The notes beneath the pieces are model-generated. The model was not told the origin of the DNA. It did not search any database and saw only the letters and a list, made by a program, of their open reading frames with translations. From the NCBI GenBank assembly GCA_963705305.1, contig OY970067.1, positions 4,064,001 through 4,128,000 on the forward strand: DNA of 64,000 nt, in the 5' to 3' direction. This DNA is from an uncultured Methylomirabilota bacterium. Lineage in GTDB: Bacteria > Methylomirabilota > Methylomirabilia > Methylomirabilales > 2-02-FULL-66-22. The position numbers were made by a program, and so were the translations under genes. Shown in pieces: positions 4,983 to 48,200 of the stretch. Every line of letters starts with the position of its first letter. Positions within the stretch are counted from its first letter, which is position 1.

Positions 4983-5016
4983 AAAATACTACTGACCCGT
5001 GACATGTGCGGTCACA
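4983..5016 (-). promoter_or_regulatory. Conserved palindromic box + -10 (copy 1), upstream of the nuclease/addB/addA operon
   Basis: Minus strand: TGTGAC-CGCACAT-GTCACG-N9-TATTTT. Confidence 0.6.
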
Positions 5017-5109
5017 GTTTCCCTCGGGGGTGTCCCCCGTAGTGGAGGTAGGAAGAAATTGCTCTGCGTGGGGTCACCTCCACCTGTCAACGGGAGCACT
5101 GGAACTCCG

Positions 5110-5622
5110 TCATCCCGCGGAACCAGTGGAATGCGAAACGCAGACAAAGGAGCGGCCCCGGCGCTTACGCCCGAAGATCCTCTTGGGGCGACACCATCGA
5201 GATGCCCTAGAGAGCAAGGGTCGAAAGTTAGAAGGAGAAACGCCCGCCGAACCCAACAGCATTCCCACGTCGCGAGAGGATGTCTCGCAAAGTAAAATGG
5301 GGCTCAGGGGCCAGGGGGGTCGGGAAAGTGCGTGGGCGCCGATCCCGAGCCGGCTCCGCGGATGCAACAATGCGGGGTGCGGATCGGCGAATGCAGGATG
5401 GAGGAGCCAGAGACTCCGTAGATCCGCACACTGGTGGCGATTTATAGCAAACCGGTCCTTCAGAGACAAGATTTTCGACGGAGTTGTCTCTCCGCCCAAA
5501 CATGGCGCAAGATTCCGAATCCTCCGGAAGACCGGCAGGGCTCTGAGGCAGACCAAGACAGCGGGCGCCGCCGCCACTTTGACCGCCAGCCTAGGGCGCT
5601 CGGGGGCGACCTCGATTTGCAT
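5110..5622 (-). CDS. Possible ORF or gene remnant downstream of box 2
   Basis: AGGAG RBS before the ATG (MQIEVAPERPRL). The remainder does not look protein-like. Confidence 0.25.
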   Translation of the reverse strand: MQIEVAPERPRLAVKVAAAPAVLVCLRALPVFRRIRNLAPCLGGETTPSKILSLKDRFAINRHQCADLRSLWLLHPAFADPHPALLHPRSRLGIGAHALSRPPWPLSPILLCETSSRDVGMLLGSAGVSPSNFRPLLSRASRWCRPKRIFGRKRRGRSFVCVSHSTGSAG

Positions 5623-5663
5623 GGGGGTCTCCTGGCGCGCCGTCTCGGAGGGTGCGCGGGAGC

Positions 5664-5697
5664 AGCATACCCGGGGAGTGTGGCAGGTAACGTCACA
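5664..5697 (-). promoter_or_regulatory. Conserved palindromic box + -10 (copy 2), divergent from WYL gene 1
   Basis: Minus strand: TGTGAC-GTTACCT-GCCACA-N9-TATGCT. Confidence 0.7.
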
Positions 5698-5756
5698 GGA
5701 GATGAGGCTCAGTTTCGTCTTGCGGGCGAGCGGGAGACGGGCCTATAGTCTCCGGG

Positions 5757-6752
5757 ATGGCGACGACCCCGGCCCCGCGTCGCGAGCGCCAGATGGTCCG
5801 GCTGCTCACGCTCCTCAAGCTGCTGCGGGAGAACGGGCACCCGTCCGTCCACGACCTCGCCGCCCGGTTCCATACCCGCCGCGAGACGATTTACCGCGAC
5901 CTCCGCGCCCTGCAGGCGGTTGGCTACCCTATCATCGGCGATGCCGAGGGCCGCCTGAGCCGACCCACCCTGCCCGTCGAGTTCCGGACGACCGTCCCCG
6001 CGGTGCCGTTCACCCGGCACGAGCTGACCGCCCTGACCTGGGCCGCCAAGCAGGCGGACTCGCGACAGCCGTTCCACACCGGCCTGGAGAGCGCGCTACG
6101 GAAGCTCCACGGCATGGCGGCCGCCCCGGATGCCCGCTTGGCCCAGTCGCTGACGGGCGTCTTCGACGGCTGGTCCCGGGGTGTGAAGAACTATGCCGGC
6201 TTTCAGGAGATCATCCTCCAGCTCGTGGAGGCGATCGTGGCCACCCGCCGCTGCTTCGTGCGCTACCAGGCGCCCGGGCGGGCCGCCCCCAACAACTTCC
6301 GGTTCGAGCCCTACCGCCTCCTCCTGATCCAGGACAGCCTCTACTGCGTGGGAAAGGGAACCTACCACGACTCCCTCATGAGTCTCGCCATCGACCGCTT
6401 CCAGCGGGTCACGGTGACCGGGGAGCCCTTCGCGCCGGACGCCAAGTTCGACCTCACAAAGTACAAGGCGGAGGCCTTCGGCGTGGTCTGGGAGAAGCCC
6501 ATGACCGTGGTCGTGCAGTTCCGCGCCGAGCAGGCCCCCTACGTCCACGAGCGCGAGTGGCATCCGACCCAGAGGCTGAAGACCCTGCGAGACGGGCGGC
6601 TGGAGCTCGCCTTCCGGGCCGGCGGCGCCTTCGAGATCACCCGCTGGATCCTGGGCTGGGGCGACGCCGCCGAGGTCGTCCGACCGGCGAAGTTGCGGCG
6701 CGAGGTGGGTGCCATCCTCCGGGCGGCAGCAAATCACTACCAACCTCGCTAG
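5757..6752 (+). CDS. HTH-WYL-WCX transcriptional regulator (PafB/PafC/DriD-like), copy 1
   Basis: N-terminal HTH (DLAARFHTRRETIYRDLRAL), WYL core (FEPYRL...LYCVG...LAIDRF) and C-terminal WHPTQ...RWILGWG. Confidence 0.92.
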   Translation: MATTPAPRRERQMVRLLTLLKLLRENGHPSVHDLAARFHTRRETIYRDLRALQAVGYPIIGDAEGRLSRPTLPVEFRTTVPAVPFTRHELTALTWAAKQADSRQPFHTGLESALRKLHGMAAAPDARLAQSLTGVFDGWSRGVKNYAGFQEIILQLVEAIVATRRCFVRYQAPGRAAPNNFRFEPYRLLLIQDSLYCVGKGTYHDSLMSLAIDRFQRVTVTGEPFAPDAKFDLTKYKAEAFGVVWEKPMTVVVQFRAEQAPYVHEREWHPTQRLKTLRDGRLELAFRAGGAFEITRWILGWGDAAEVVRPAKLRREVGAILRAAANHYQPR

Positions 6753-6760
6753 CGAGCCCC

Positions 6761-8356
6761 ATGGCGCAGATCGTCCCCTCCGACATCGCCCCCTACGAAC
6801 GGTCAGGTTGGCATACCCCCGAGCTCGAGACCCTGAATACGCTGCGAGCGCGCCTGCCGGCCGCATACACGGTCTACCACGGCGTGCACTGGGCCCGCGA
6901 GGGCGCGCAGGCAACGGCCTTTGGAGAACTGGACTTCGTCGTCGTGAACGCGGTGGGGCGCGTGCTCGTCGTCGAGCAGAAGAACGGGGCGCTGGAGCAG
7001 ACCGCTTCCGGCCTGGTGAAGACCTACCCCGATGGGTCGAAGAGCGTCGGGGAGCAGGTGCAGCGCTCCCTCGACGGCATCCGTCGGAAGTTCAGGGCAG
7101 TCCATGGACCCGGCGCAACGCTCGACCTTGACTATCTCATCTATTGCCCGGACCATCGGTTACACGCCCTCAACGCGGCGGCCCTCGATGCCAGCCGGAT
7201 CGTCGATGCAGAGCAGCGCGACCGACTGGCCGAGCGGATCGAGGGTATCCTCGGACCGGGCCTCCCCCCGGACCCTGCCCGAGCCGAGCGAGCCCTGGCC
7301 TTCTTTCGGCAGACCTTCGAGGTGGTCCCGGACATCCATGCCCACATGAGCCAGCAGGAGAAGGCATACACCCGGCTCGCCGGCCCCCTGGCCCAGCTCC
7401 TGGCCAATCTGGAGATGACCCCCCTCCGCCTGCGGATCTACGGCACGGCGGGCTGCGGGAAGAGTCTGATCGCCGGCCAGTTCTTCCAGAAGGCCCTCGC
7501 CCAGGGGAAGAGGCCCATTCTCGTCTGCTACAACCGGCCGCTCGCCGAGAAGTTGAAGGCCAGCCTGCCGTCCGACGGCCTCGTCACCAATTTCCACGGG
7601 CTCTGCGACCAGTTCCTGAAGAGCCAGGGGCATCCGCCCGTCTACGACGACTGGACACGCATTGTCGAATCGGTCGCGGCAGAGTCTGTTCCGGGTTCGT
7701 GGAAGTTCGATGCGGTGATCGTGGACGAGGGGCAGGACTTCGAGCAGGAGTGGGTGGAAACCCTTCGCCTCTTCCTCCGGGACCAACCGGATATGGTGTG
7801 GCTCGAGGACCCGGACCAGAACGTTCACGACCGAGCACCTGTGACTCTTGCCGGCTTCGTTGGCTACCGAGCCCGAGTCAACTACCGGACGCCCCGCACG
7901 ATTGCCAAAGCCATCCAGGACATGCTCTCGATCGACTTCGAGATCGGGAATCCCCTTCCGGGCCTCGGGGTGGGAACGACGCCCTACAAAGACCCTGCAG
8001 AGCAGCCTGGCCACGTCGCTCGGATCATCGATGGACTGCTGCAGAAGGGATTCACTCACGATGAGATCGTGGTGCTAACCCTGCGCGGCGTGCAGCACTC
8101 GGTCTTCAGCACGCGGGAGCGGGTCGGCAACTTCACCCTGCGGCGGTTCACAGGGGAATACGATCTGTTCGGCAACCAGATCCTCTCGGCCGGTCAGATC
8201 ACCTTCGACAGCGTCCGCCGCTTCAAGGGCCAGCAGTCCCCTGCCGTGATTCTGGTGGACGTAGAATCCGATTCCAGCCATCCAGAACTATCACAGCGCC
8301 TCCTCTACACAGGCATGACGCGGGGGACGGTGCGGGTGGAGCTGCTAAGAAGGTGA
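6761..8356 (+). CDS. NERD nuclease + SF1 (UvrD-like) helicase fusion
   Basis: From MAQIVPS: GELDFVVV...VEQKNG (NERD), GTAGCGKS, VDEGQDF, FKGQQSP and LYTGMTRG. Starts 8 bp after the WYL stop. Confidence 0.85.
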   Translation: MAQIVPSDIAPYERSGWHTPELETLNTLRARLPAAYTVYHGVHWAREGAQATAFGELDFVVVNAVGRVLVVEQKNGALEQTASGLVKTYPDGSKSVGEQVQRSLDGIRRKFRAVHGPGATLDLDYLIYCPDHRLHALNAAALDASRIVDAEQRDRLAERIEGILGPGLPPDPARAERALAFFRQTFEVVPDIHAHMSQQEKAYTRLAGPLAQLLANLEMTPLRLRIYGTAGCGKSLIAGQFFQKALAQGKRPILVCYNRPLAEKLKASLPSDGLVTNFHGLCDQFLKSQGHPPVYDDWTRIVESVAAESVPGSWKFDAVIVDEGQDFEQEWVETLRLFLRDQPDMVWLEDPDQNVHDRAPVTLAGFVGYRARVNYRTPRTIAKAIQDMLSIDFEIGNPLPGLGVGTTPYKDPAEQPGHVARIIDGLLQKGFTHDEIVVLTLRGVQHSVFSTRERVGNFTLRRFTGEYDLFGNQILSAGQITFDSVRRFKGQQSPAVILVDVESDSSHPELSQRLLYTGMTRGTVRVELLRR

Positions 8357-8507
8357 GAAAGTCTGGGAGACCTCATTCACGGGGAGCTTTCCCTGCCGTG
8401 TATTTCCAAGTAGCGGGGTGATGTCCGCATTGAGGTTCCCCCACGACGCCCGAGGCCCGATCCTGGCAGGCGCTTGCGCTCCCAAAGACAACGACGGACT
8501 TCCCGGG

Positions 8508-9746
8508 CTACCCTTGGCGGGCACCGACCAGCGTTCCAGCATCGTACTCCAGCAATATCCGAGTGGGGCGGTCACCCTCTTGGAGGAGCTGGTGGGTACG
8601 AACGATCGCGCCACTGCCTACCTGAGCCTGTTGCTTGATCGCCTTTGCAAGCGCATTGCACTTTCTGTACAGCGTCTTCCGCCGTGCCCGAAGCGTTGAT
8701 TCCAGATTGAATGTTGCATCGACTGCCCGGACCTCGCCACGAACCGCCGCCATCTCCTGCCGCAGAGCCTCGAGCGCCGAAAGTGATCTCTCAATGCTGG
8801 CGCGACGCGCCGCCTTCATCTGGGGCTCACCGGGATACAGGCACAGGACATGCCAGGCAGCGATCCGGCATTTGAGACACAACTCTAGGTCCTCGACAAT
8901 CTTTCCGAGCTCGTCGACCTTGGCCGAGATTCCGTCCGTTAGCTTTCTGGAGCCGATGAGATCAGTACCCTCCACCCGCTTCTCGAGTTTCTGCCGAAAC
9001 TCGGCTTCGAGGTGATCCTGGATTTTCAAGAGATCGCGCTCGCAATTCTCCAAGTGAATACGGGCAGGCAGGGGCAACTCGCCCGCAGTCAGTGCCGTAC
9101 ACACCTGAGTGAGGTATTCGTATGTCGAGCGGATCCGCGCCTGTCGCTGATTGTTGAGGAACTGGCAGACGGCCTCCACGCGATCCTTGATCTCCCCGAG
9201 TATTTTGCTGATGTCGGCAAGGTGCTTTTGGGCGACGATGACAGAAGCGACTTGCCATACCGCTGCCGCATTGATCATGCTCTGCAGTGTATTCACATCA
9301 AAAAGGCGCGCGTGTTCCGAAATCCTACCCCCCGCCATCGCGAAGGCCCGACGGCCGCTCCCGTCCGCGGCTCGTACGAGGTCCCCGTTGATGACTACCT
9401 CCATCAAGTGTTTACCGTGAGCTTGATGCGCAACGAGGATCGATGGCGCAGATTGGACCAGTGCGCCCAGCTTGCTGACTGGGGCGCTCTGCAGAGCTAT
9501 TGGCTTGGCCTTCTTGAAATCGCGAGGAGATCGGAGGGGCCCAATAGTCATGATGGGCCGGGTCGGCGTATCGCCGATCGCAATGCTCGTGGGTGGCGGA
9601 CCCGTCGGCGGCTCGGCGCGTGGCAGCGATGCTTGTCTTTCAAGAGCCGGAGGCTGCTGCCGTCTCAGCCAGAGCACATAGAGAACCGCTGCGACAAATG
9701 CCAAGAGAAGCGTCAGCGTGATCAAGCCCTGTCCGCTCAGAGTCAT
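8508..9746 (-). CDS. Membrane-anchored, helical/coiled-coil hypothetical protein
   Basis: N-terminal hydrophobic helix (LITLTLLLAFVAAVLYVLWL), Pro-rich linker and long amphipathic helices. Confidence 0.7.
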   Translation of the reverse strand: MTLSGQGLITLTLLLAFVAAVLYVLWLRRQQPPALERQASLPRAEPPTGPPPTSIAIGDTPTRPIMTIGPLRSPRDFKKAKPIALQSAPVSKLGALVQSAPSILVAHQAHGKHLMEVVINGDLVRAADGSGRRAFAMAGGRISEHARLFDVNTLQSMINAAAVWQVASVIVAQKHLADISKILGEIKDRVEAVCQFLNNQRQARIRSTYEYLTQVCTALTAGELPLPARIHLENCERDLLKIQDHLEAEFRQKLEKRVEGTDLIGSRKLTDGISAKVDELGKIVEDLELCLKCRIAAWHVLCLYPGEPQMKAARRASIERSLSALEALRQEMAAVRGEVRAVDATFNLESTLRARRKTLYRKCNALAKAIKQQAQVGSGAIVRTHQLLQEGDRPTRILLEYDAGTLVGARQG

Positions 9747-9892
9747 GGGCCCTCCATTCCGCTGGCTAAATTCAGGGAATAATACCACAGCTTGCGGTCG
9801 GTCGGTACCCGCACGACATTGTGAGGAGCATCAACATCCACCATGGCAGGAGGATCGCCAGCACGGTAGCGACAATCAGGACGGCCCAATCC

Positions 9893-10693
9893 TCACCCCT
9901 CAGTTTCGCGTCCATCTTCCTTTCCCTTCCCGGACTTCAGCAGGGCACTCCAGGCCTTTTGTGCCATAGACAATGTGGGCACCCTTCCCCATCGTCGCCA
10001 TCGGGGCGGCAGGCGATCTCGGTATTGGTACGTTTCCACGCGGAGGGCAGGCTGGAGAGCCGGGATGGCGCAGATACCACCGACATGGCAAACGCCCTGT
10101 GCTATCAATCGGATGATCGGCGCAATCTCGCGGATACCCCGGAGGAGGTGCCGAGGGTGCGCCGAGGTGTGGAACAAGATCCACCGATCCAGGAGACCAC
10201 ATTCCGCCACTGCAGCGGCTAGCGCTAGGAAGTAGCCCCGCGGGTTTACCAGGGAGATTACGCGGGGGATATGGAGACTCTTGATGCGCCGGACTCCCCG
10301 TACCAGGGCCTCATTCAGTTCTTCGAGGGCAGTCCACCGGCCGGATCGGGTCGGACGGAACCAGCGCCATGACGGGGCGCCCCAGTCCTCCCCGTCCGGA
10401 TTCCTGGCCCGATCCATCTCGGTCTCCAGGACGATGGCCCCCCGCGGATCGTCCGGGGCGGTCTCCAGGATAGAGCTGTCTACCGCCGCCAAGGCCACGC
10501 GCCCTGCAAGGCGAAGATCCCGGAGCTGCGCATCCGCCTCCCGCCAGGTGTTCCAGCCGGACTTCCGGTACGCCTCCGCCCTGAAGTAGTTCCCCACGCA
10601 GGCGGCGGCGTTGCACGGGAGGATCAGGAGAACCTCCGCGTGCGCCAGCGACCGCAGCTGGACCCATGACTCCTCTCCCTTGATGCGCCTCAT
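9893..10693 (-). CDS. Hypothetical protein translationally coupled to the peptidase
   Basis: 266 aa ORF with an ATGA overlap at 10690-10693 and a GGAGG RBS. Confidence 0.65.
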   Translation of the reverse strand: MRRIKGEESWVQLRSLAHAEVLLILPCNAAACVGNYFRAEAYRKSGWNTWREADAQLRDLRLAGRVALAAVDSSILETAPDDPRGAIVLETEMDRARNPDGEDWGAPSWRWFRPTRSGRWTALEELNEALVRGVRRIKSLHIPRVISLVNPRGYFLALAAAVAECGLLDRWILFHTSAHPRHLLRGIREIAPIIRLIAQGVCHVGGICAIPALQPALRVETYQYRDRLPPRWRRWGRVPTLSMAQKAWSALLKSGKGKEDGRETEG

Positions 10694-11682
10694 GGAGCCT
10701 CCCCCGGGTGGCCCCGTCGCCGTGGGCGGGGTTGGGCTTCGGAGGGAGACGCGTCTGGCCCTGCCGGCATATCGGCCAGGACCCCCTGCGCGGCGTCGAT
10801 CGTCGCCTGCGGGAGGCCGGCCATCGTGATGAGATCCTGCTCGGTGCCGTAGGCGATCAGGGCGAAGGCGAACCGGTCCAGGAGGGCCGCCTCCTCGGCA
10901 TCGGGGAGCCGCGTGGGGAGGCCGAGGGCCTCTGCCTCTTCCCAGTCGATGACGAAGCCGTGGGTGGGATAGCCGTGGACCAGGCGGTCCAGGAGCTTCG
11001 GGCCCGCATCGGCCCAGAGGGCCGGGCGGTACCGCTTGAGGAGGCGCTCGGCGTACTCGCCCCCGGTCTCCATTCCCCGGGCGCTCTCGGCGAGGTGGGC
11101 GGGGTCGAGCCGGGCGTAGAGCGGGCCGTAGAGGCCGGCCGTCAGTTCCGCGGCCTTGCTGCAGGCGTCGCAGAGCCGCATCCCGCTCTTGCTGGAGATC
11201 CGGGCGACGAGGTCGTCGTACAGCCCGACGGCCCCGTGCTGGAGCTGCTGGAGGGCCTTGAAGGGGACCAGGCGCGAGGTGGTGAGGGGGCCGTCCGCCT
11301 CCTGCTTCTCGTCCCCCTGCTGGTCCAGGGGGCCCAGCTCGCCCAGGCTCCCCAGGACGAGCTCGTCGGCGGCCAAACAGAGGAGGGTCGCCGCGCTCTT
11401 GGCCCGGAAGGGGACGAAGATGGTGAGCGCCTCGAACCGGCGCCGGAGCTCCCGGGCCACCAGGTAGGCGGCCTCGATGTCCCCGCCGGGACTGGCCACG
11501 AGCACGTCCAGGTGCGGGCCGGTCTCCTCCTCCAGGGCGGCGCGGATCGCCCGGACATCGGCATGGACCAGCCGCCGGCTGACGAACAGGAGGCAGGGAC
11601 GCTGGCGGTAGGCCCGGAGCTGCGCGCCCAGCTCGCGGATCTCCTGCTCGGCCTCGGCGGGAGTGGCTTTCGCAGTGACCAT
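10690..11682 (-). CDS. SDH-family ClpP/SppA-like serine peptidase, copy 1
   Basis: Motifs LDVLVASPGGDIEAA, VPFRAKSAATLLCLAADE, LGPLD and YPTHGFVI. AAGGAGGT RBS before MVTAK. Confidence 0.85.
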   Translation of the reverse strand: MVTAKATPAEAEQEIRELGAQLRAYRQRPCLLFVSRRLVHADVRAIRAALEEETGPHLDVLVASPGGDIEAAYLVARELRRRFEALTIFVPFRAKSAATLLCLAADELVLGSLGELGPLDQQGDEKQEADGPLTTSRLVPFKALQQLQHGAVGLYDDLVARISSKSGMRLCDACSKAAELTAGLYGPLYARLDPAHLAESARGMETGGEYAERLLKRYRPALWADAGPKLLDRLVHGYPTHGFVIDWEEAEALGLPTRLPDAEEAALLDRFAFALIAYGTEQDLITMAGLPQATIDAAQGVLADMPAGPDASPSEAQPRPRRRGHPGEAP

Positions 11683-11769
11683 GGACAACCTCCTTGGAAG
11701 TTGGAACCCGGCCTTTGGGGGGCCGGCCGTCAGTCGGTAGCCATTGGCCTCAAGAAGTCCACGGCCCTT

Positions 11770-11922
11770 TAGCAGGCGGCTCAAAAAGGTCCGGATGCAA
11801 GGCTGCGTCACCCATCCTTCCGGATGGGTACCCGGCGCGGTGCGAGGCGTACTTCGCTCGTACGTCGCAGTGCCGCGCGAGCGCGCTAACGACGCAGATG
11901 GGCCTTTTTCAGCAGCCTGCTA
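11770..11922. mobile_element. MITE-like miniature inverted-repeat element (~150 bp)
   Basis: Terminal IRs TAGCAGGCGGCTCAAAAAGGTCC / GGCCTTTTTCAGCAGCCTGCTA, with internal hairpins (ACCCATCC...GGATGGGT). Confidence 0.7.
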
Positions 11923-12099: not shown

Positions 12100-12145
12100 G
12101 GGCCCCTCTCCTCCTCCGCATCGCCGGTCGGCTCTGTGCAGCCGG

Positions 12146-30387: not shown

Positions 30388-30459
30388 GCCTTGCGGATGA
30401 ATGGGCTTGAGCTGGGCCGTCTTGACTGGTATGATCTATTCATACCGAGGAGGGATGCC

Positions 30460-33208: not shown

Positions 33209-34339
<1,131 letters not shown>

Positions 34340-39045: not shown

Positions 39046-42000
39046 TTATGTTTGGCGGGGCAGGCGCGCCATCGCCCCCGCCAGCGGGAAGTGAATCCAG
39101 CTCTCGCGGACCGTGGCCTCCTGTGAGGCCAGGGCCGCTCGGTACGCCCCCAGTTGGCCCGCATAGGTCGCAGCCTTCTGCGCGCACTGGGTCCTGGCCA
39201 CCGGCCCGCATTTGTGGTCAACGACGACCAGCGTAGCGTCAGGCAGGTGAAGGACCAGGTCGGCACTGCCCACCCACTGTCCGCCTGCCCCCCGCGGTGC
39301 CGTGAGCGGCACCTCCGTGTGCCATGCCGCGCCCGGATAGCGCCCCGCCACCCAGTCCCGCAACCGGTCGCCCATCTCGACGAGGATCGTCGGCGTCAGA
39401 AGCTCTTCTACCCCGAATCCCCGCAGGCAGCGGGCCGCGATGGCGAGCCGGCGAGCGGGGGGCAGATCGACCATGGAGGGGAGCGCCGTGAGGTAGGCGT
39501 GAACGGCCTGCCCCAGGGCCGCCTCCTGGGCCTCGGGGACCTTCGGGAACACCGGCTGGCCGGGGAGGAGCTCGACGGCGACCGCCGCCTCGGGGACGGG
39601 GGCCTCGACAGCGCTCGGGCTGTGGCCCTCGACCGAGCTCGGGCTGTAGTAGCGCGGGATGTGCTCGACGGATCCGGCGGAGTCGCCGAGTGCCGCCAGC
39701 CACCGCTGCCGGAGATCGGCCGGCGAGCCTGATCCATCCTCCGGCGGGGGCTCGAGTCGGCGGAGGACATACGTGGTTTCCAGGCCCTCCAGGGGATGCT
39801 CGCCGTCCGGCCCGATCGGCGGCAAGAGCGCATCGACATCCGGGAGGGAGGCCAGCCAGGCGTACCGGCCCTCCCGGTGGGCGAGGACCAGGGTCTCCTT
39901 CGCCCGGGTGAACCCGACGTAGAGGAGGCGATTCGATTCGGCCTCGGCGCGGGCGGCGGCTTCCTGCCCCTCAGGGGCGTTGAGGACGCGGTCGTCCAGA
40001 TCCGTCCCGGCGGAGCGGCTGCCGAAGGGCCAGGGCCAGTACCGGATGATCCGGCCTGCCAGCGGATCGTCCGCCGCCGGATCGCCCCCACCCACCCGCA
40101 CCTTCCACATGTCCGGGTCGCGCTCCGCCTCCAGCCCCGACAGGACCACCACCGGCCACTCGAGTCCCTTGGCGCTGTGGTAGGTGAGGATGGTCACCGC
40201 GTCGATCCCATAGGGTGCCCGTGTGAGATCGGCCTCATCGTCGGACAGCCTGATGAAGTGGGCCACCAGGCCGGGGAGGGTGGCCGCCGAGCCGAGTACC
40301 TGCATCTCCTGCTCGTAGGCCTGGGCCAAGCGCACCAGGGCGTCCAGGTTGGCCAACCGCTGCGCGGGATTCCCCCAGGACCGGAGGCGATCGCCGACCC
40401 GGAGGGCGTCCAGCACGCGCTGGAGGGCGACCGTGGGGGGGAGCGTCCGGTGGTCGATGGCCTCCAGGGGCGCCAGGGCCGGATGGTCCGCCCAGGGGCG
40501 GGCGGAGGCAGCCTGACTCTCTTCGGCGGCGCGGAGGGCTCGGAGCCGCTCGGCGAGCCAGGCGGGCGTCTCCGCGGCGGGATCCTCCAGCAGATGGAGG
40601 ATGGTCGCGGCGGCGAGGCTATCGCCGCGGTCCACCGTCAGCTGAAGCCCGGCCAGGGTGAGCGCCCCCTCGCGGGTGGCGAGCAGACCGGGGAGCTCGA
40701 GGAGGGCGGGGAGACCCAACGCCCGGCAGGCTTCGCCGATCCGCTGCGCCTGGGAATTCGTCCGGGTGAGGATGGCAACGTCCCGGAGCAACCGCCCCTC
40801 ATCCCGGAGGGTCCGGACGCCTGCGGCGAGCGCGCGTGCCTCCTCCTTGACATTCGTTCCCCCCAGGATCCAGCGCTCCACCCCCCGCGGCTTGCCGGGC
40901 TTGTCGGGGACGAGCATGGCCTCCTCGCCGAAGAGGGGGCGGAACAGGCGCCCGACGAGCCGGACCAGCCCGGCCTGGCTCCGGTAGTTGTTCGGGAGGC
41001 GATCACGCGCCGTCTCGGGGACCGCACCCCAGACGGCCCGGATGAGCTCGGGGTCCGTCCCCCGGAACCCGAAGATCGACTGCTTGGCGTCTCCCACCCA
41101 GTAGCTCTGGTCGGCGAGCGCGCGAAGCCGCTGGAAGATGGCGAGCTGGAGCGGATTGGTGTCGTGGAACTCGTCCACGACCACCAGCGCAAAGTCCATC
41201 GCCACGCTGGCGGCGAGGGCGGGTGTCTCGAGGAGGCGGAGGAGCCACACCTCGAGGTCGGTGAAGTCGAGGAGGCCGCGCTCCCGCTTGTAGGCGGCGT
41301 ACTCGTGCTCCAGGGCGAGGGTCCGCTCGGCCAGGCGATCGAGGAGCTCGCCGATGTCCTGGTGGAGCGAGCGCCAGGTGAGGACGCCTGCGGCCTCGGC
41401 GCGGAGCGGCGCCAGGGCGGCGTCGGCCCCGGAGGTCTTCCCGGCCTTGATGCCCGCCGCCCAGCAGACATCCGCCCAGGCCCCCGACCGCGCAGCCAGG
41501 ATCCGGGCGAGCTGCCTCCGGGCGTCGCGGGTTGTCTTGGTGTCGTCCTTCAGACCGTCGATCCGGTCGAGGACCGCGGCGATCCGGGAATAGAAAGCGT
41601 CGAAGGCGAGGCCGGGCTCCGCCCGCCCGCCGGGTGCCATGAGGGTGCAGAGCCGCGTGCCGCCGGCCCGGAGCTGGGCCCGGAAGGCCCCATCTCCGAT
41701 CCGGTTCCCCCGCTTGGCATCGAGGAGGCCGAGGACGAGCGCCTGGGGAGAGCCGAGAGAGAGGCGTCCGGTGAGGGCGGCCAGCGCCACCCAGGGGTCG
41801 GCCTGCATCCGGCCGAGAAGATCGTGCAGGGCCCGGGTGCTCCCCGTCTCCTCCAGGACGGCGAGGCGCGGCGAGAAGCCCAGCGGCAGGGCATAACGGG
41901 CAAGGAGCTGGTGACCCACGCTGTGGACGGTCCCGATGGAGGCCAGCTCCAGGCGTTCGGCCGCCGCGGTGCGCTCGCGGCTGCCAAGGCCTGGATGGGT

Positions 42001-42174
42001 AAGGAGCTTCGCCTGGATGCGCCCTTTGAGCTCGGCCGCCGCCTTGCGGGTGAAGGTGGTCGCGAGGATCCGGGCGGGATCGAGACCCGAGGCGACGGCC
42101 TCGGCGATCACTTCGCACAGCCGGGTGGTCTTCCCCGAGCCGGCCCCGGCGCGGATGACCCGCAGCGTTCCCAT
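39046..42174 (-). CDS. AddA-like UvrD helicase + PD-(D/E)XK nuclease (operon 2)
   Basis: AGAGSGKT, TFTRKAA, VDEFHD, VGDAKQSIFGFRG, NYRS, TYHSAKGLEW, LLYVGFTRA, ADL...VDHK and QLGAY. Confidence 0.92.
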   Translation of the reverse strand: MGTLRVIRAGAGSGKTTRLCEVIAEAVASGLDPARILATTFTRKAAAELKGRIQAKLLTHPGLGSRERTAAAERLELASIGTVHSVGHQLLARYALPLGFSPRLAVLEETGSTRALHDLLGRMQADPWVALAALTGRLSLGSPQALVLGLLDAKRGNRIGDGAFRAQLRAGGTRLCTLMAPGGRAEPGLAFDAFYSRIAAVLDRIDGLKDDTKTTRDARRQLARILAARSGAWADVCWAAGIKAGKTSGADAALAPLRAEAAGVLTWRSLHQDIGELLDRLAERTLALEHEYAAYKRERGLLDFTDLEVWLLRLLETPALAASVAMDFALVVVDEFHDTNPLQLAIFQRLRALADQSYWVGDAKQSIFGFRGTDPELIRAVWGAVPETARDRLPNNYRSQAGLVRLVGRLFRPLFGEEAMLVPDKPGKPRGVERWILGGTNVKEEARALAAGVRTLRDEGRLLRDVAILTRTNSQAQRIGEACRALGLPALLELPGLLATREGALTLAGLQLTVDRGDSLAAATILHLLEDPAAETPAWLAERLRALRAAEESQAASARPWADHPALAPLEAIDHRTLPPTVALQRVLDALRVGDRLRSWGNPAQRLANLDALVRLAQAYEQEMQVLGSAATLPGLVAHFIRLSDDEADLTRAPYGIDAVTILTYHSAKGLEWPVVVLSGLEAERDPDMWKVRVGGGDPAADDPLAGRIIRYWPWPFGSRSAGTDLDDRVLNAPEGQEAAARAEAESNRLLYVGFTRAKETLVLAHREGRYAWLASLPDVDALLPPIGPDGEHPLEGLETTYVLRRLEPPPEDGSGSPADLRQRWLAALGDSAGSVEHIPRYYSPSSVEGHSPSAVEAPVPEAAVAVELLPGQPVFPKVPEAQEAALGQAVHAYLTALPSMVDLPPARRLAIAARCLRGFGVEELLTPTILVEMGDRLRDWVAGRYPGAAWHTEVPLTAPRGAGGQWVGSADLVLHLPDATLVVVDHKCGPVARTQCAQKAATYAGQLGAYRAALASQEATVRESWIHFPLAGAMARLPRQT

Positions 42175-42243
42175 CAGGAGAGCCTCGCCAGGCCGCAGAG
42201 GACCTGGTAGTCGCAGTACGTGCAGGGCTCCCGCTCGCTGCGG
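42174..42243 (-). pseudogene. Displaced C-terminal tail of addB-like gene 2
   Basis: SEREPCTYCDYQVLCGLARLS*; the stop overlaps the addA ATG. Confidence 0.85.
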
Positions 42244-42406
42244 TGGAGGCGCCACCATCGAGATCGTCGCTTTTCGGCGGGAAGGGCACCGGCAGCGCCA
42301 CGATGGATCCCGGCACTGTGAGGCGCGAGGCAGACGGGTGCGCAGGCGCGGGAGATTTGAGGCGCCAACACGCCCGTCGCAGGGAGACGCGGGCAGCGGA
42401 CCCCGA

Positions 42407-43177
42407 CTACGAAGGTGTCGCGACCTTCGGCGCGGGGCGGCGGTGGGTCTCGCGATAGCTCGTCCCTTCCAGGTGGAAGACCTCGGCCCGCTCCGCGAGC
42501 CGGTCCAGGATGGCGTGCGCCACGGCGTCGTCGGCGAAGATCTGATTCCACTCGCCAAACGTGCGATTCGTGGTGACCACCGTTGGCTTCCGCCGGTCAT
42601 GCCGGACGGAGATCACCTGGAACACGAGGTGGCTCTCCGGCTGGCGCAGGCTGACGTACCCGACCTCGTCGATCTCCAGCAACCCGGGGCTCTGGTACGT
42701 CTTGAGCGCCCGGTGCAAGGTCTTCGTCGCCTCCGCCGCGCTCAGGTGGTTCACCATGGCGGCGAGCGACGTGAACAGGACGCTCTGCCCGCGTTGGCAC
42801 TGGGCATAGCCCAAGGCCCGGGCGAGATGCGTCTTCCCCAAGCCACTCCCCCCGACGAACAGCGCCCCGATCCCCTCGACCACGAGGTCGGTGGCCAAGA
42901 GGTTCAGGTAGCGACTCCGGAGCTTCCGGGTGGCGACGCTGTACTCGAAGTTGAACGTGTCTGCCGTCTGCAGCTGGACGAAGCGCGCGGCCCTGATCCG
43001 CGCCGCCACCTTCTGCTCGCTCCGCCGCGTGAGCTCCCGATCGACGAGCCCCTCGAGCACCGCGCGGACTGCCGCGCGTTCGGCGGGATGCCGCTCGCCC
43101 CACGCGGCGAGGAACGCGGGGGCACTCATGAGCTGGAGCTGGGTCAGCTTCTCCTCAAGCGTCGGGGTTGCCATCAT
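42407..43177 (-). CDS. istB: IS21 helper ATPase
   Basis: GGSGLGKTHLA, IDEVGY, VTTNR and AILDRL. Confidence 0.92.
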   Translation of the reverse strand: MMATPTLEEKLTQLQLMSAPAFLAAWGERHPAERAAVRAVLEGLVDRELTRRSEQKVAARIRAARFVQLQTADTFNFEYSVATRKLRSRYLNLLATDLVVEGIGALFVGGSGLGKTHLARALGYAQCQRGQSVLFTSLAAMVNHLSAAEATKTLHRALKTYQSPGLLEIDEVGYVSLRQPESHLVFQVISVRHDRRKPTVVTTNRTFGEWNQIFADDAVAHAILDRLAERAEVFHLEGTSYRETHRRPAPKVATPS

Positions 43178-44654
43178 GGTCCTCCGGATCGGCGTCGAGG
43201 AGCAGGGCATCGTACCGCTGCAGGTTGGGGCGCACCGGCGGCACGCTCAATCGGGGATCCCCGAGCGTGAGTGGGGGCGGCGCCACGGGCGGCGTGTCCT
43301 GGAGCCGGAGCCACTGCTCGACCTGGTGGCTCCCGACGATGGCCTGGGCGAGGCACGCGGCGAGCGCGGCTTCCACCGCGGCCGGGCCATAGAGGGTCGT
43401 GAGGAGCAGCAGGTGGTCCAACTCCGTCCGGAGCGAGCGCGTCCCCGCCCGGATGAGTTCCAGGTACTGCCGGGCCGCGGGCCCCAGCGCCTGCACGGCC
43501 TCGACCTGCCAGTGGGCCTGCGCACCGGGCTTGGTGGCCAGGAGCCCGTCGGCGTGGGCCGGGAGCACCACCTCCACCCCGCGCCGCCAGCAGCGGCCAT
43601 GCCGCGCCACGCGATGGGTGCCATACCAGAGGGTCACCGTGTCCGCATCCGCTCGCAGCGTGAGCGGCTTCCCCACCAAGCGCCAGGGGACCGAGTACCG
43701 GTTCCCGTCGAAGGCCACGCGGAAGCTCGGCGGCACCACCACGCTCCGCACCTCGTCCGTGTCGTACGGCTCCCCCAGTGGGAGCAAGGCCGGCCGCTCC
43801 TCGGCGACGAGGAGCGCGGGGATCTTCCGGGTCACGCGGTGCTCGCGCTGGTTCGCGATCGTGTCCCGCCACGCCTGGGCCTGCGTGTTCAGATCGGCGA
43901 GATCGCGGAAGGTCCGCCCCGGCCAGAAGTTCGTCCGGAGGTACTTGATGGCGTCCTCGACCCGCCCCTTCTCGTTCCCTTTGCCCACGTTGCAGGCCAC
44001 CGGCCGGAAGCGGTGGTGGCCGGCGTACGCCAGGAAGCGCGGGTGGAAGCGGACGAGCTTCCCGTGCCGCTCGGCCACCGCCGTCGCCAGGTTGTCGTAC
44101 CAGCACTCCTTTGGGCAGCCGCCCACGAAGGCGAAGGCAGCCTCGTGGCACCGCAGGAACGCCTCGAGGGTCTGGCTGAAGGTGAAGGTGACGGTCAAGA
44201 GCCGGGAGTAGCACAGGACGAGCACGAAGGCATGGACGGCCCGGCCGATCCCGAAGACGTCGCCGAACTCGCCCCAGTCCACCTGGGCGGCCTCCCCGCG
44301 GCCGAAGCTGAGCGTGGCCATGGCAGCTGGCGCGGCACTCGGCCGCAGCCGGCGCACGGCGCCCCGCAGCGCGCTGCTGCCGCCCCGGTAGCCCTCCTGC
44401 CGGAGCACCTGGAAGATCGTCACCGCCGAGCGCGCCGGGTCCTCGGTGAGCAGCGCCTGGATGCGGGCCCGGAACGGCGTGACCACCGTGGTCCGCGGCG
44501 CCGGCGGCGCGGGCACCAAGGCCACGCTCCGGCGCAGCGCCACCTTCCGGGCGCTCTCCCGGTGGATGCCGAGGTGGCGAGCGATCTGGCTGTAGCCCCA
44601 GCGCTCGGCATAGCGGAGCCGGAGGATCTCGGCTTGAATCGCGGCGGCCAGCAT
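43155..44654 (-). CDS. istA: IS21 DDE transposase
   Basis: HTH, AQVDWG, LCYSR, YDN, EKGRVE and FDGNRYSVP. Confidence 0.92.
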   Translation of the reverse strand: MLAAAIQAEILRLRYAERWGYSQIARHLGIHRESARKVALRRSVALVPAPPAPRTTVVTPFRARIQALLTEDPARSAVTIFQVLRQEGYRGGSSALRGAVRRLRPSAAPAAMATLSFGRGEAAQVDWGEFGDVFGIGRAVHAFVLVLCYSRLLTVTFTFSQTLEAFLRCHEAAFAFVGGCPKECWYDNLATAVAERHGKLVRFHPRFLAYAGHHRFRPVACNVGKGNEKGRVEDAIKYLRTNFWPGRTFRDLADLNTQAQAWRDTIANQREHRVTRKIPALLVAEERPALLPLGEPYDTDEVRSVVVPPSFRVAFDGNRYSVPWRLVGKPLTLRADADTVTLWYGTHRVARHGRCWRRGVEVVLPAHADGLLATKPGAQAHWQVEAVQALGPAARQYLELIRAGTRSLRTELDHLLLLTTLYGPAAVEAALAACLAQAIVGSHQVEQWLRLQDTPPVAPPPLTLGDPRLSVPPVRPNLQRYDALLLDADPEDHDGNPDA

Positions 44655-44707
44655 GGGGCACCTCCTTCCGGATGCCCCGGGTGTACCACCGAACTCCCGA
44701 TCCGCCT

Positions 44708-44932
44708 ATCGCGTCTCGTATCACCTTCCCGCGGCGCACTAACGGGGGCGAAGGGCCCGTGGGATCAGGGCTTGACGCCAGATCGCGTCTCGCGCCCTCA
44801 TGCAGTTAGGAGGGTGTAACCCCGCGGGAACCCAGCCCGAACCGACCAGATCGCGTCTCGCGCCGTCCGGGGTGCATTCTAGGGGGCCCGAACCCCGCAT
44901 GGGGGTTGCCCTTGCGCCATAATCGCGTCTCG
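44708..44932. repeat. Four regularly spaced ATCGCGTCTCG repeats
   Basis: Starts at 44708, 44782, 44850 and 44922. Confidence 0.85.
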
Positions 44933-45205
44933 CATCGCAGGGAGCACGCCGCGCAGGAAGCTCGCCACCTGGCGCGGGGAGACCGGCGTGGGCGCGGCCC
45001 GCGCCCGGGCCGGGTGCACGTAGTCCCGGTAGTGCGTGCGGGTCACGGCACGGTTCCGGCGGCGCCAAGCCCGACAGCTGGCGGCATGCCGCTGCTGCTG
45101 ACAGGCGGGCGCCCCGCAGGTCCATTGCCGCGGCCCCAGGCGGGGATGCGGACGGAAGAGAGTCTGACAGAAGGGGCACCGTCGGCGCCGCGGAGCTCGG
45201 GGCAT
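44879..45205 (-). CDS. Small Zn-finger protein inside IS21
   Basis: CPFC...CGAPAC followed by a basic helix. Confidence 0.6.
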   Translation of the reverse strand: MPRAPRRRRCPFCQTLFRPHPRLGPRQWTCGAPACQQQRHAASCRAWRRRNRAVTRTHYRDYVHPARARAAPTPVSPRQVASFLRGVLPAMRDAIMAQGQPPCGVRAP

Positions 45206-45396
45206 CGATTCACCTCCCAGATGGAAGGCGACACCGTACCCGATGGGCCGGGCTTCCGCTCAGGATGGATACCGGGAGGTAAGTTGGACCGAACCTAGGC
45301 GGGCCTCTCGAGAAAGGGAACCACCGGATGAACGATCACTGACGGTGACGACTGCCGTCGTGGTGAAAGGTGACAACGTCTATGGTGTTGCGGCCA

Positions 45397-48026
45397 CTGC
45401 GGTCCCTGCGGGGATCGGTGTCGATCATGAGGTCCGCTCCCTCCGGCCACTCGGCGGGGTCCTGGAGGGGGCGGGCGGGAACGGGCTCACCCGCCGTGAG
45501 CCAACGTTCGGCTCGTGCGACGGCGGATGCCAGGTTATTCCAGACCGCGCCCATCGCGGGTCCTGGGATGACCTGGGCGGGCTCGGCGCCTTTGAGGGGA
45601 CTTCCCTCCGGGGTGTAGAGGAGCCCGTCGGCCAAGATGAGGTAGCCAACACCGGGCAGGCGACCGGACGCCGCCTGGGAACGCGCGTGGGCATAGGTGG
45701 AGAGCTGGACGGCGCGTCCCTCCTCCAGGAGGCGGCGATACTTCTCGCGCCCGGCGTACTTGAAGTCGATCACGCCCTCCTCCCCGTCCCGCCGCTTGAG
45801 GAGGCAATCGATGAAGCCAAGGAGATTCCGCCCGAGGGCCGTTCCCTCGATGGGCACCTCGAAACCCTCGATCCGGTACCCGCCGGCGCGGAGGGCGCCG
45901 GCGAACGTGCGGGCGGCGGCGGCCAGCTCGCTTCGGAGGCGGAGGCGCTCCTCGAGCCGCACCGGCTGGGCGAGGGGAGCCGCGTCGAGGGGAAGCCGCT
46001 CGTCGAAGCGCCGGAGGACCGCCTGCTCCGCGGCCTCGGGTGGGTAGGCGGTCCCATCGGCCTGGCGGACGGCCTGGAGGACCAAGTGGCCGAAGGTCCC
46101 CTTCAGGAGAAAGTCGTCCGGGAGGCTCACCAGGGCGCCCGGCTCGAGGCGGGCGGCGTAGCGGAGGACCCACTGGAGCGGACAGCCGAGGCGGCAGGTG
46201 AGGTCGCTCGCCGAGGTCTTGGTCCGATCCCGCAGGAGGCCCGGCGGAAGGCTCCAGCGCGGCCGGATCGGCTGCGCAGGCTGGACGGCGAAGGTGTCCT
46301 GCCCGAAGCGCCAGGGAGACACAACCTCCGGAGGGCCGGCCGTCAAGATGGATTCGAGGTCGATGGGGTGTCGAGCCTCTCCCCGTTCGAGCGCGCCGTT
46401 GATCTGCAGCCAGATCGGATGGGGTCGAAGTTCCTCATCGGTAGGGAGGGCGATCGCCAGGAGGGCCTCGGTCACGCGGAGGAGACCTCGGCGCTCCGCC
46501 TCCCGGCGGGCGGTGACGGCCCGGCTGCCATCGTCGAGGTCGATCCCAACAGCCCGGAGCGCCTGGATGTCCTGGGCGGTCCAGTGCGGGGTCGGAGGAT
46601 CGGCCGTCCCCAGGCCCAGCCAGATCAGCCGGGCGCAGGGCGCCGGGATCTCGGCCAGGCTCGCCACCAGGCGCGGGCCGCCGGCGGCCTCCAGGTGCGG
46701 CTGCGCCGCGAGGCCCTGGGGGAGGGTGGCCTCCAGAAGGCGGGCGAGCTGCGGCTCCGAAATGTCGCCGCCCTGCGTCGCGACCAGGGCGCCGAGCGTG
46801 CTCGCCTGGCCTGCCGCGGTCTCCAGGGCCTCGGAGAGGGCCGCCTCGGGTGGGGCAGCCTCGGCGAGGGCCCGCGCGCGTCCCGTCGCCCACTGCGCCA
46901 CGCGGGCGCACCGCTCCTTCACCAGGCTGGCGGGGAGGAGGCTCCCCCAGGGGCGTCGCTCGATCTCGAGCCAGGTCCGGAGGCGCTCCCGCAGCGCCCC
47001 GTCCGGATCGGCCTCGGGGGCGCAGAGCTCTTCCAGCGTCTCCTCCCACGCGTGGCTCCCGAGACCCGGCTGCCTAGCCAGGGCGTCCGCGAGGCGGCGG
47101 GCTGCCCGGCGCGGGATCGGGCCGACGGGCAGGGCGAGGAAATCGAGAAGGACGGCCGGGTCTACCGGCTCCCAGCAAAGGCGCAGGGCCAGGGGAAGGA
47201 CCTGGAGCACCGGGTGGGCGAGGGTGAGGAGGCTCGCCCCGGCGGTGGAGAGCCCCAGGCGCCCGAGGCATCCATCCAGCGCGAGGGCGACGGTCGGATC
47301 CTCGCAGCAGATGACGGTATCCGTGAGGCGCGCCGGCTCGGCCGCCAGGGCGCGAGCGACGGCCTCGCAGGCCGCCAGTGCGCTCCGGCTCCGGAGCCAG
47401 CGGAGACTGGGATCGGGTCGTGCGGGGGGGAGTGTTCCCTCGATGAGCTGGTCCTGGATCGTCCGGAGGGCTGTCCCGGAGTTTGCGCTTGGGGGACAGC
47501 CTGGGGGAGCTGCGGTCGAGAGACGGGCCAGGACCGAGCGCCAGCGAACCGGCCAGAGGTCAGGGGGATCGATAAGGATGATCCGGTGCGAGGGGGGTCG
47601 CTGGCCCTCGTCCAAGGCGGCCAGGACCCGCGCCAGCCGCTCGGCCTCGTCCGGCCACCGGAGGGGAGTGCGCTCGGTCGCCCCGGCGAGATCGTTGAGG
47701 AGGGGCGGGAGGCCAGGATCGGTGCGGCCGTCCCAGCCGGCCAGCCGGAGCGCGTCCCGCCGCCCGAGCAACTCGCTGGCGGTTCCCCAGCGGTCCGCGG
47801 TCAGGCTCGCCGCGAACGAGGGGCCAGGCGCCCGGTCGAGGGCGGTGGCAAACTCGAGGACTCGGGTGGAGTGGGGCGGCGGGGCGAACTGAAGGCCGAA
47901 CTGGGTCTCGAGCCAGCGGAGGAGCACCTCGGGTCCGCCGCGGTGGACGTTCCACGAATGCTCTCCGACTGGCGGCCGCACGGGGGAGCCCGTGAGCTGG
48001 ACCTCGAGCTGCGTGATGTCCGCCAT
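45397..48026 (-). pseudogene. AddB-like PD-(D/E)XK nuclease (operon 2), interrupted by IS21
   Basis: SASDL...GCPLQW, GFIDCL...IDFKY and QLSTY. The last three Fe-S cysteines lie on the far side of the IS. Confidence 0.85.
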
Positions 48027-48166
48027 CGGAAGCCCTCCATGTGCGGGTGGCTGCCTCAGGTCTTCTAGCGCTTATCCGCCCTTCGGTCAAGGGAGAGGGA
48101 CAACTTGTCCGGGACAACGATTCGACATCGCTCATCTGCTGAGAGGAGCGTCGCAGCGGTGGGGGG

Positions 48167-48200
48167 ACCATACAGCATCACTGTGCGATGTAACGCCACA
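48167..48200 (-). promoter_or_regulatory. Conserved palindromic box + -10 (copy 6), upstream of addB/addA operon 2
   Basis: Minus strand: TGTGGC-GTTACAT-CGCACA-N9-TATGGT. Confidence 0.6.

Follow-up and report, generated by a model that had tools for sequence, protein, structure and literature searches.

A palindromic box phased to the -10 element is a predicted binding site for WYL proteins in -35-less promoters of a Methylomirabilota accessory island

Six promoters in a 64,000-nucleotide (nt) stretch of DNA from an uncultured Methylomirabilota bacterium (contig OY970067.1, positions 4,064,001 to 4,128,000; hereafter the window) carry a common near-palindromic box at a fixed distance from a -10-like hexamer. 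We consider it probable that this box, TGTGRC-N7-SYCACA, is the binding site of the two homodimeric helix-turn-helix (HTH)-WYL-WCX proteins encoded in the same accessory island and that it lies within activated promoters lacking a -35 element. The link between the box and WYL genes is well supported. That the WYL proteins bind the box we infer from sequence and analogy; that they activate rather than repress is suggested by promoter geometry and protein kinship only. The six sites, each oriented by its -10-like hexamer, are as follows.

Site 1, 4983 to 5016, minus strand: box at 4998-5016 (TGTGAC..GTCACG, one mismatch), -10-like TATTTT at 4983-4988
Site 2, 5664 to 5697, minus strand: box at 5679-5697, -10-like TATGCT at 5664-5669; points away from the regulator gene WYL1
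Site 3, 12146 to 12179, minus strand: box at 12161-12179, -10-like TAGAAT at 12146-12151
Site 4, 26261 to 26294, plus strand: box at 26261-26279, -10-like TAGAAT at 26289-26294; duplicate of site 3
Site 5, 30234 to 30267, plus strand: box at 30234-30252, -10-like TATGCT at 30262-30267; points away from the second regulator gene, WYL2, with a HicB/HicA pair between
Site 6, 48167 to 48200, minus strand: box at 48182-48200 (variant TGTGGC..CGCACA), -10-like TATGGT at 48167-48172

The initial annotation had described six 19-bp near-palindromes, each followed after 9 nt by TANNNT, and all six are present where it placed them and align without gaps. Its consensus, TGTGRC-N7-GYCACA-N9-TANNNT, is exact at four of the six (5679(-), 12161(-), 26261(+) and 30234(+)), but site 1 departs from it by one mismatch and site 6 by two, both in a promoter-proximal half that reads CGCACA. 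The full 34-nt pattern matches four times in the window versus not once in 100 shuffles. Only about four sites are independent, as had been noted, because sites 3 and 4 are duplicated and sites 2 and 5 are homologous. Sites 3 and 4 lie in an inverted duplication of 1409 bp (99.9% identical, 10776-12184 = 26256-27664) that begins 5 bp upstream of the box; the DNA around sites 2 and 5 is homologous (84% over 62 bp) and adjoins two WYL genes whose nucleotide sequences are 86% identical. The spacer of site 1, ggtcagtag, recurs together with its type of box behind the WYL gene of a relative (G019). Two box positions that the consensus leaves unconstrained are conserved as well, C at position 7 (27/33) and T at position 13 (32/33). 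These are not complementary mates, so the box is asymmetric along the direction of transcription. The same C...T is found at these positions in the didA box printed in PMC13004042, a target of the Caulobacter crescentus WYL activator DriD.

We scanned the whole genome (5.65 Mb) with the -10 fixed, using the reversed, non-complemented pattern as a control. The motif proved to be enriched, not at background frequency, and its N9 spacing fixed, not loose, in this genome as at the WYL loci described below. Matches with zero, one and two palindrome mismatches numbered 5, 1 and 2, against 0, 0 and 4 for the control (6 versus 0 at no more than one mismatch). All five exact matches have a spacer of 9, and any other spacer from 5 to 14 gives at most one exact match. 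By these counts and spacers, sites 1 to 5 far exceed what chance would give. For site 6 the count alone is not significant; the site is rescued by homology, because the CGCACA variant dominates beside WYL genes in other phyla, and homology lends it further support in that an orthologue of the AddB-like gene behind it is preceded by a perfect box in relative G002. The eight genome matches comprise the six sites above, one at 1,672,024 that looks like chance, and one at 811,598(-), which is a seventh box with a spacer and -10 (TAGAAT) identical to those of sites 3 and 4. This last box sits within a 61-bp relic of the site 3/4 promoter (82% identical; genome 811,561-811,621, locus L001 about 9962-10022). 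The relic has an alcohol dehydrogenase gene on one side and, on the other, a convergent gene's end (glycosyltransferase-like by eye), and no open reading frame (ORF) follows the box. Because the box occurs only at these sites, classical repair genes fall outside its set: across the whole genome it precedes none of them.

The box occupies the place where a -35 element would be, as had been proposed: it is exactly phased to the -10, and the promoters have no -35 of their own. Across 62 unique promoter-type instances, TTGACA at 16-18 nt is matched at no more than three of six positions in 59 and at four of six in the other 3. Placing the -10 at -12 to -7 puts the box at about -40 to -22 and its promoter-proximal TGTC at -28 to -25, the register of the -26 element of PafBC, a WYL activator of mycobacteria, and of the DriD box.

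The island encodes two regulators that could recognize such a box. They are single genes, 22 kb apart.

WYL1, 5757 to 6752, plus strand: HTH-WYL-WCX regulator of 331 amino acids (aa)
WYL2, 28623 to 29612, minus strand: HTH-WYL-WCX regulator, 82% identical to WYL1

Both proteins match HTH_11/HTH_PafC, WYL and WCX in Pfam. The WYL1 gene, like the WYL genes at five other loci, has a good -10 (TATAGT or TATACT) only ~6-12 nt before the start codon (window 5745-5757; upstream regions in loci L086, L089, L090, L092 and L097), which suggests from sequence that WYL mRNAs are leaderless or near-leaderless. At the acidobacterial loci, 18-20 nt separate the -10 of the WYL gene from the box, and the cargo promoter is on the box's other side.

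The distribution of the box across genomes bears out the proposal that it is tied to WYL proteins, both by co-occurrence in relatives and by adjacency to WYL genes across phyla. We searched 101 genomes, the window's own and 100 relatives, for GTGAC-N7-GYCAC-N10-TANNNT and obtained 36 matches in 21 genomes, versus 5 matches for a control pattern. A WYL1 homologue (E <= 1e-20) is present in 31 of the 101. The pattern is carried by 15 of these 31 WYL-positive genomes versus 6 of the 70 WYL-negative ones, and outside the window's own genome about half of its matches lie within 2.5 kb of a WYL gene. In 29 loci of the same class (105 kb), chosen only by their WYL homologue and searched for palindromes with at most one mismatch, 44 oriented palindromes were found. 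TANNNT stood at N9 in 11 of them and at N8 in 2; the 12 other offsets gave none. One genome, G082, is unpublished; it contributes 3 of the 36 pattern matches, 2 of the 11 N9 sites and entries in a few other tabulations, and no conclusion depends on it.

The same phasing appears in a cross-phylum set of 31 loci (228 kb) from GTDB species genomes, found with the six closest WYL sequences; three of these loci are contigs already scanned. Their titles name Methylomirabilales, Rokubacteria, Bryobacterales, Terriglobia, Acidobacteriaceae, Nitrospira, Acidimicrobiaceae and Solirubrobacteraceae, the closest being titled Candidatus Methylomirabilales and Rokubacteria. With the strict half-sites GTGAC/GYCAC, boxes were found in 4 of the 31 loci, and a de novo search for 6-N7-6 palindromes found 3. 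Inspection of the intergenic DNA showed the CGCACA variant of the proximal half, the form seen at site 6, and a relaxed scan for TGTG-N11-CACA then recovered 23 of the 31 loci. TGTGRC-N7-CGCACA is the dominant form beside WYL genes in other phyla. The relaxed scan yielded 30 palindromes, or 60 oriented instances, and TANNNT stands at exactly N9 in 28 of them but in no more than 2 at each other offset from 3 to 25. Most of these 28 sites, 22 of them, stand upstream of the WYL gene and face away from it; 2 more are upstream but face toward it, and 4 are downstream in the same direction.

By sequence and modeled fold, DriD is the closest solved relative of WYL1, and the WYL repressors BrxR and CapW are much further away. 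A phmmer search of the PDB with WYL1 returned only DriD chains at E <= 0.01 (6e-14); PafBC scored 0.2, and neither BrxR nor CapW was matched even at E <= 10. An AlphaFold model built from 12 sequences (pLDDT 79.6) has helices followed by beta-rich WYL and WCX parts, and Foldseek placed it nearest DriD (1e-17, with a full-length alignment of about 330 columns), then PafBC (1.5e-13), BrxR (7e-8) and CapW (4e-7). In the DriD complex as described in PMC10853764, Arg37 reads G2 of the sequence CGAC, Arg41 the G opposite its C4, and Glu40 contacts C1. The bases read by the two arginines are kept in the box (TGAC), and the equivalent of Arg41 is invariant in the 12-sequence alignment. At the Glu40 position these WYL proteins have Tyr, Trp or Arg, where the base is T.

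The initial annotation had not recognized the combination as a described system. The regulatory design is, however, already described, because the promoters of DriD, PafBC and SiwR share it. DriD binds ATACGAC(X)7GTCGTAT, its promoters are described as lacking a -35, and in the bidirectional driD promoter it is reported to activate the divergent operon and not its own gene (PMC13004042). The likeness to the promoters described here is extensive: a homodimer-type HTH-WYL-WCX protein that is the best sequence and fold match to WYL1; a pseudo-palindromic 6-N7-6 box with a GAC-N7-GTC core; a box over the -35 position at a fixed distance to the -10 (8-9 nt counted on the didA oligonucleotide printed in PMC13004042, versus 9 nt here); no -35 element; and a box in a divergent promoter beside the regulator gene that drives the neighboring operon, with scattered promoters forming one regulon. 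DriD differs in its half-site (TACGAC, versus TGTGAC or TGTGGC here), in sequence (identity to WYL1 is only about 23-25%, and 7 of 10 residues that contact single-stranded DNA (ssDNA) differ), in the reach of its regulon, which is chromosome-wide there and local to an accessory island here, and in its targets, which are didA, bapE, recJ and dnaG, versus AddAB-like helicase-nuclease pairs and an SDH-type peptidase here. A further difference is that LexA is also present in this genome.

PafBC, the second-best structural match to WYL1, recognizes tGTCgg(N10)tA(N3)T (PMC8635444). It shares with our promoters a canonical -10, the lack of a -35, and a TGTC 16 nt before the first T of the -10 (here TGTCAC-N10-TAnnnT). 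Unlike the WYL proteins of the island, it is a heterodimer of two WYL proteins with a short, non-palindromic -26 element and a regulon given as ~150 genes (PMC8635444). With single WYL genes 22 kb apart and a palindrome of two half-sites here, only the register is shared. SiwR of Mycobacterium smegmatis resembles the present case in geometry: as described in PMC10693628, it is a homodimeric WYL activator with a small local regulon and a 19-bp imperfect palindrome between the -35 and -10 regions of a divergent neighboring operon, but with DinB/YfiT-like cargo and an actinobacterial host. DdaA of Moraxellaceae can be likened by description only. It is reported to be a WYL activator with a CGWC-N7-GWCG-type palindrome, but a global one that replaced SOS in its lineage and that belongs to another WYL cluster with another half-site (PMC12392091). 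BrxR (of BREX) and CapW (of CBASS) have the domain order in common with the WYL proteins here, as well as palindromic operators close to the regulator gene and a link with defense islands; they differ in being repressors and in matching WYL1 much more weakly (Foldseek E 1e-7 versus 1e-17; PDB 7T8K, 7QFZ, 7TB5/6, 9C5G). We found no published description of this box or its cargo, in a literature search too narrow to exclude one in print. What is new here is the half-site, the wide distribution and part of the cargo; the mechanism is not new.

Four of the six sites point into cargo and two point away from the WYL genes, as the initial annotation had it, but the AddAB-like operon behind site 6 is cut by an insertion sequence (IS). 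The genes concerned are the following.

ORF304, 3887 to 4801, minus strand: first ORF behind site 1, 304 aa, no family match; a D..EVK stretch resembles PD-(D/E)XK by eye
ORF231, 3313 to 4008, minus strand: second ORF behind site 1, 231 aa as listed (true start probably later), no family match
AddB-like 1, 193 to 3282, minus strand: 1029 aa, with a C-terminal PD-(D/E)XK nuclease domain (PF12705, E 9e-37)
AddA-like 1, 1 to 200 and on beyond the left end of the window (genome 4060976-4064200), minus strand: about 1074 aa, intact, with a Walker A motif
AddB-like 2, 45336 to 48026, minus strand: behind site 6; the last ~20 codons of the listed ORF lie within the IS
IS21-family element, 42244 to 45398, minus strand: 3155 bp, with IstA at 43155-44654 and IstB at 42407-43210
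AddA-like 2, 39046 to 42243, minus strand: UvrD-type helicase, separated from site 6 by the IS
59-aa ORF copy 1, 11920 to 12098, minus strand: begins MQMYELWK, behind site 3
59-aa ORF copy 2, 26342 to 26520, plus strand: behind site 4
SDH-type peptidase copy 1, 10690 to 11811, minus strand: predicted Clp-fold serine peptidase, 373 aa
SDH-type peptidase copy 2, 26629 to 27735, plus strand: 368 aa, with a C-terminus different from that of copy 1
Two ORFs behind peptidase copy 1, 9893-10693 and 8508-9788, minus strand: same strand as the peptidase, no family match
NERD-domain helicase of superfamily 1, 6761 to 8356, plus strand: 531 aa, starts 8 nt after WYL1, without a box in front

The AddA-like 1 gene overlaps the stop of AddB-like 1, and this first pair has the domains and gene order of AddAB; in AddA-like 2, Pfam finds no nuclease domain. 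Scores against the NCBIfam AddA and AddB equivalogs fall far below the cut-offs (for example, 49.7 versus 903.7 bits and 162 versus 861 bits), and AddB-like 2 matches none, so that by NCBIfam standards the four proteins are AddAB-like and not AddAB. The two pairs are not close paralogues: the AddB-like proteins do not match each other in BLASTP at E <= 1e-3, and the AddA-like proteins are 27% identical. A further helicase-nuclease gene lies at 3.34 Mb of the genome. The second operon counts as cut because the IS sits exactly at the junction of AddB-like 2 and AddA-like 2, and both listed ORFs run into it by chance. This IS has three near-identical copies in the genome, the others at 2852266-2855420 and 4197908-4203737, one of them itself interrupted. 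Between site 1 and its first ORF a GC-rich hairpin followed by UUUUU (window 4852-4887, minus strand) lies ~90-125 nt behind the -10 and ~50 nt before ORF304. The site 1 leader folds no better than shuffles (z = -0.11), and a simple terminator scan raised no flag in it.

The inverted duplication takes in the box promoter and the 59-aa ORF, together with most of the SDH-type peptidase gene; the C-terminus of peptidase copy 2 differs because the duplication ends at 27664. The peptidase matches Pfam PF01972 with 36.6 bits (cut-off 31.3) over profile positions 82-158 of 286 only, and NCBIfam NF047768 with 53 bits (cut-off 250). PADLOC names no defense system for the AddAB-like, SDH-type or nameless ORFs; its only matches are generic WYL, a GajB-like helicase, reverse transcriptase (RT) and NACHT-effector models.

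In other genomes the box stands before partly the same and partly different genes. Comparing 26 first ORFs behind boxes in the same-class set with the window proteins, we found four homologues of the SDH-type peptidase (60-65% identical; one each in G019 and G005, and two loci in G010), the AddB-like 2 orthologue in G002 (65-68% identical) and a weak AddB-like 1 relative in G050. Pfam was run on 18 of the 26, leaving out the four peptidase homologues and four short ORFs with low G+C at third codon positions (GC3). It matched nine: C39-like peptidase, ARPP-1, AAA ATPase, ORF6N, TY-Chap3 with TPR, DinB (IMS family, G036), vWA, integrase-SAM (weak) and phosphatidylserine decarboxylase, the last probably a chance match of the box. 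Gene order in G050 is WYL, box, 78-aa ORF, AddB-like, AddA-like; in G052 it is WYL, box, small ORF, C39 peptidase, DUF2779, GmrSD. HEAT and AAA genes lie behind boxes of the site 6 type in wider flanks. Pfam was likewise run on 22 of the 26 cross-phylum first ORFs, leaving out four from contigs scanned before, and these comprise eight AAA ATPases of ~455 aa, five other families and nine ORFs without a match. The 59-aa ORF is intact in G019 and one G010 locus and carries a one-base frameshift in G005 and the other G010 locus, the same one-base loss in a run of G (L064 of G005, about 9244-9420; L071 of G010, about 7750-7930); it could be an assembly error, decay or a slippery site.

Read from left to right, the window (66% G+C) holds AddA-like 1, AddB-like 1, ORF231, ORF304, site 1, ~650 nt, site 2, WYL1, the NERD helicase, two nameless ORFs, the SDH-type peptidase, the 59-aa ORF, site 3, a 14-kb segment, site 4, and the second copies of the 59-aa ORF and the peptidase. 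There follow MazE-PIN, WYL2, HicB/HicA, site 5, a dispersed repeat, RHH-PIN, IS110, a group II intron, a DUF3553 gene, AddA-like 2, the 3155-bp IS21-family element, AddB-like 2 and site 6. The 14-kb segment between the duplicated arms contains IS1380-like and Mu-like transposase fragments, an RNase H-fold gene, AbiEi/AbiEii, a NACHT NTPase and an integrase fragment. The NACHT NTPase (20434-24903, plus strand, 1489 aa) matches PADLOC endonuclease-effector models with its N-terminal 130 residues and has a C-terminal NCAB2 domain; judging by these matches, it is probably an antiviral STAND-type protein. The dispersed repeat is ~110-125 bp long and MITE/REP-like, with a GGGTACCC..GGGTRMC hairpin and well over 100 copies in the genome, among them 30276-30395 in the leader behind site 5 and 26516-26640 and 11800-11924 between the 59-aa ORF and the SDH-type peptidase gene. 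The group II intron (34859-36834, plus strand) is marked by Rfam domains at its two ends, contains an RT/maturase ORF (35286-36677) and adjoins the IS110 transposase (33281-34339). Further right lies a hybrid histidine kinase of 2305 aa (51754-58671, plus strand; CHASE, seven GAF, two HisKA stretches, receiver domain) between a sigma-54 activator and a double-receiver protein. The region belongs to core-genome signaling and lies outside the island.

In the mechanism that we propose, which is modeled on DriD, a ligand-bound WYL dimer would sit at the would-be -35 and aid the binding of the housekeeping holoenzyme of RNA polymerase to an otherwise poor promoter. A single signal would then turn on every box unit: the AddAB-like operon, the second operon broken by the IS, the two cassettes of 59-aa protein and SDH-type peptidase, and the two transcripts divergent from the WYL genes. 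Among the sequencing runs listed for window positions 3000-12500 there was no RNA run, only two DNA runs (shares 0.30 and 0.05) and two more added from the same study.

Several results tell against activation of these promoters by WYL proteins bound at the box. A box at -40 to -22 would suit a repressor equally well, and WYL repressors of defense islands are known (BrxR, CapW). Perhaps the box is an operator for proteins of that kind, whose dimer would block RNA polymerase on the core promoter until a signal arrives? Its position overlaps the polymerase footprint, the island is rich in defense-type and toxin-antitoxin genes (AbiE, NACHT, PIN, HicAB), WYL repressors that co-localize with defense islands and sense ssDNA have been reported (PMC9122601, PMC11662680), and BrxR and CapW are still significant structural matches. 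However, a repressed promoter should be complete, and a -35 is missing in 59 of the 62 instances; exact phasing to the -10 across genes and phyla is not needed for a repressor; and in sequence and fold the proteins are much closer to the activators DriD and PafBC, in a register equal to that of the PafBC -26 element. We regard repression as a possible but unlikely explanation. A different objection comes from the base contacts: the residue aligned with DriD Arg37 is an arginine only in the distant subfamily, the close one having Glu. The cargo raises another, in that three of the six window promoters (sites 2, 5 and 6) drive doubtful or damaged cargo. The ~650 nt ahead of site 2 (5017-5665) carry no coding signal and have no copy elsewhere in the genome; in the window Rfam at its gathering threshold finds only the group II intron, there is no tRNA gene, and no known RNA accounts for this stretch. 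Site 5 faces the dispersed repeat and then an RHH gene (30462-30693) and a PIN gene (30690-31091).

The co-occurrence counts, for their part, overstate the support, because related genomes are not independent, and 6 of the 21 box-positive genomes lack a close WYL homologue. Two of these (G002 and G014) have only a 28-29% identical WYL relative; G010, which is 76% complete, has only WYL fragments, and G075 only a match to PF13280, the WYL domain. In G033 and G073, neither the protein query nor PF13280 found a WYL protein. With a 99% complete genome and two perfect boxes, G033 is the clearest result against strict WYL dependence of the box. Its boxes (L074, G033:C45, 7252 and 9247) lie amid three ORF6N genes, two PIN genes and a Cas3-like helicase. 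Such a genome would be expected if a factor other than the neighboring WYL proteins bound the box and the linkage reflected shared island membership only, and ORF6N-domain DNA-binding proteins do recur near boxes in G033, G019 and G014. Yet in most loci chosen by their WYL gene, in several phyla and with otherwise different neighbors, the box lies less than 200 nt from the WYL start or stop; in core (GAC-N7-GTC) and geometry (6-N7-6) it agrees with the box of DriD, a homologue with solved contacts; and no other regulator is common to these loci. We think another factor very improbable. Still harder to credit is that the palindromes are ends of mobile elements or recombination sites, of the kind with TGTG...CACA termini, and the -10-like hexamers incidental. 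The 1.4-kb inverted duplication that starts 5 bp upstream of a box and flanks 14 kb of mobile-element and defense genes would fit such an origin, as would the 61-bp relic elsewhere in the genome, but boxes precede orthologous genes in unrelated contexts, occur singly and not paired as ends, and keep one orientation at exactly 9 nt from TANNNT, and no transposase family travels with them. A box bound by WYL proteins that activate -35-less promoters remains the reading that we favor.

What the WYL proteins would respond to is a separate matter. The initial annotation had assumed ssDNA as the trigger, and this part of it fared poorly. Ten residues of DriD are described as contacting ssDNA (Tyr168, Ser172, Arg178, Arg189, Tyr192, Arg204, Trp206, Arg207, Tyr240 and Arg288; PMC10853764), and in a HMMER alignment at about 25% identity WYL1 is identical at three of them, Tyr168, Arg178 and Tyr192. 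Arg204, Trp206 and Arg207 align with Met, Leu and Ala, the Ala being invariant in 12 of 12 aligned homologues. At ~25% identity the alignment may be locally shifted, though the neighboring Asp-Arg anchor is conserved. Because 7 of the 10 contacts differ, with Arg207 replaced by an invariant Ala, the DriD signal is not simply transferable, and this too counts against a straightforward DriD-like reading. Other basic residues could replace the lost contacts, but we have lowered our expectation of ssDNA as the signal and, from the residues in WYL1, place it somewhat short of an even chance at best. A DNA-related trigger of some kind is likely, because the cargo includes DinB, helicase-nucleases, DUF2779 and the NERD helicase. 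We entertain, as a speculative extension that we rate as rather unlikely, that this WYL subfamily, having lost most of the ssDNA arginines of DriD, answers to a different ligand, and that the regulator and its -35-less promoter form a portable cassette with changing cargo, including a pair not yet described, a 59-aa protein and an SDH-type Clp-fold peptidase, that damage or infection would induce.

The promoter logic of DriD, SiwR and PafBC would thus extend to poorly studied, mostly uncultured lineages of soil and sediment. For these the analysis provides an exactly defined box, a rule for its phasing and a set of predicted targets, and it marks two gene sets as probably co-induced: the AddAB-like helicase-nucleases, and the 59-aa protein with the SDH-type peptidase. 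The ligand pocket, which is predicted to differ from the one in which DriD holds ssDNA, is the only feature here from which something new could come.

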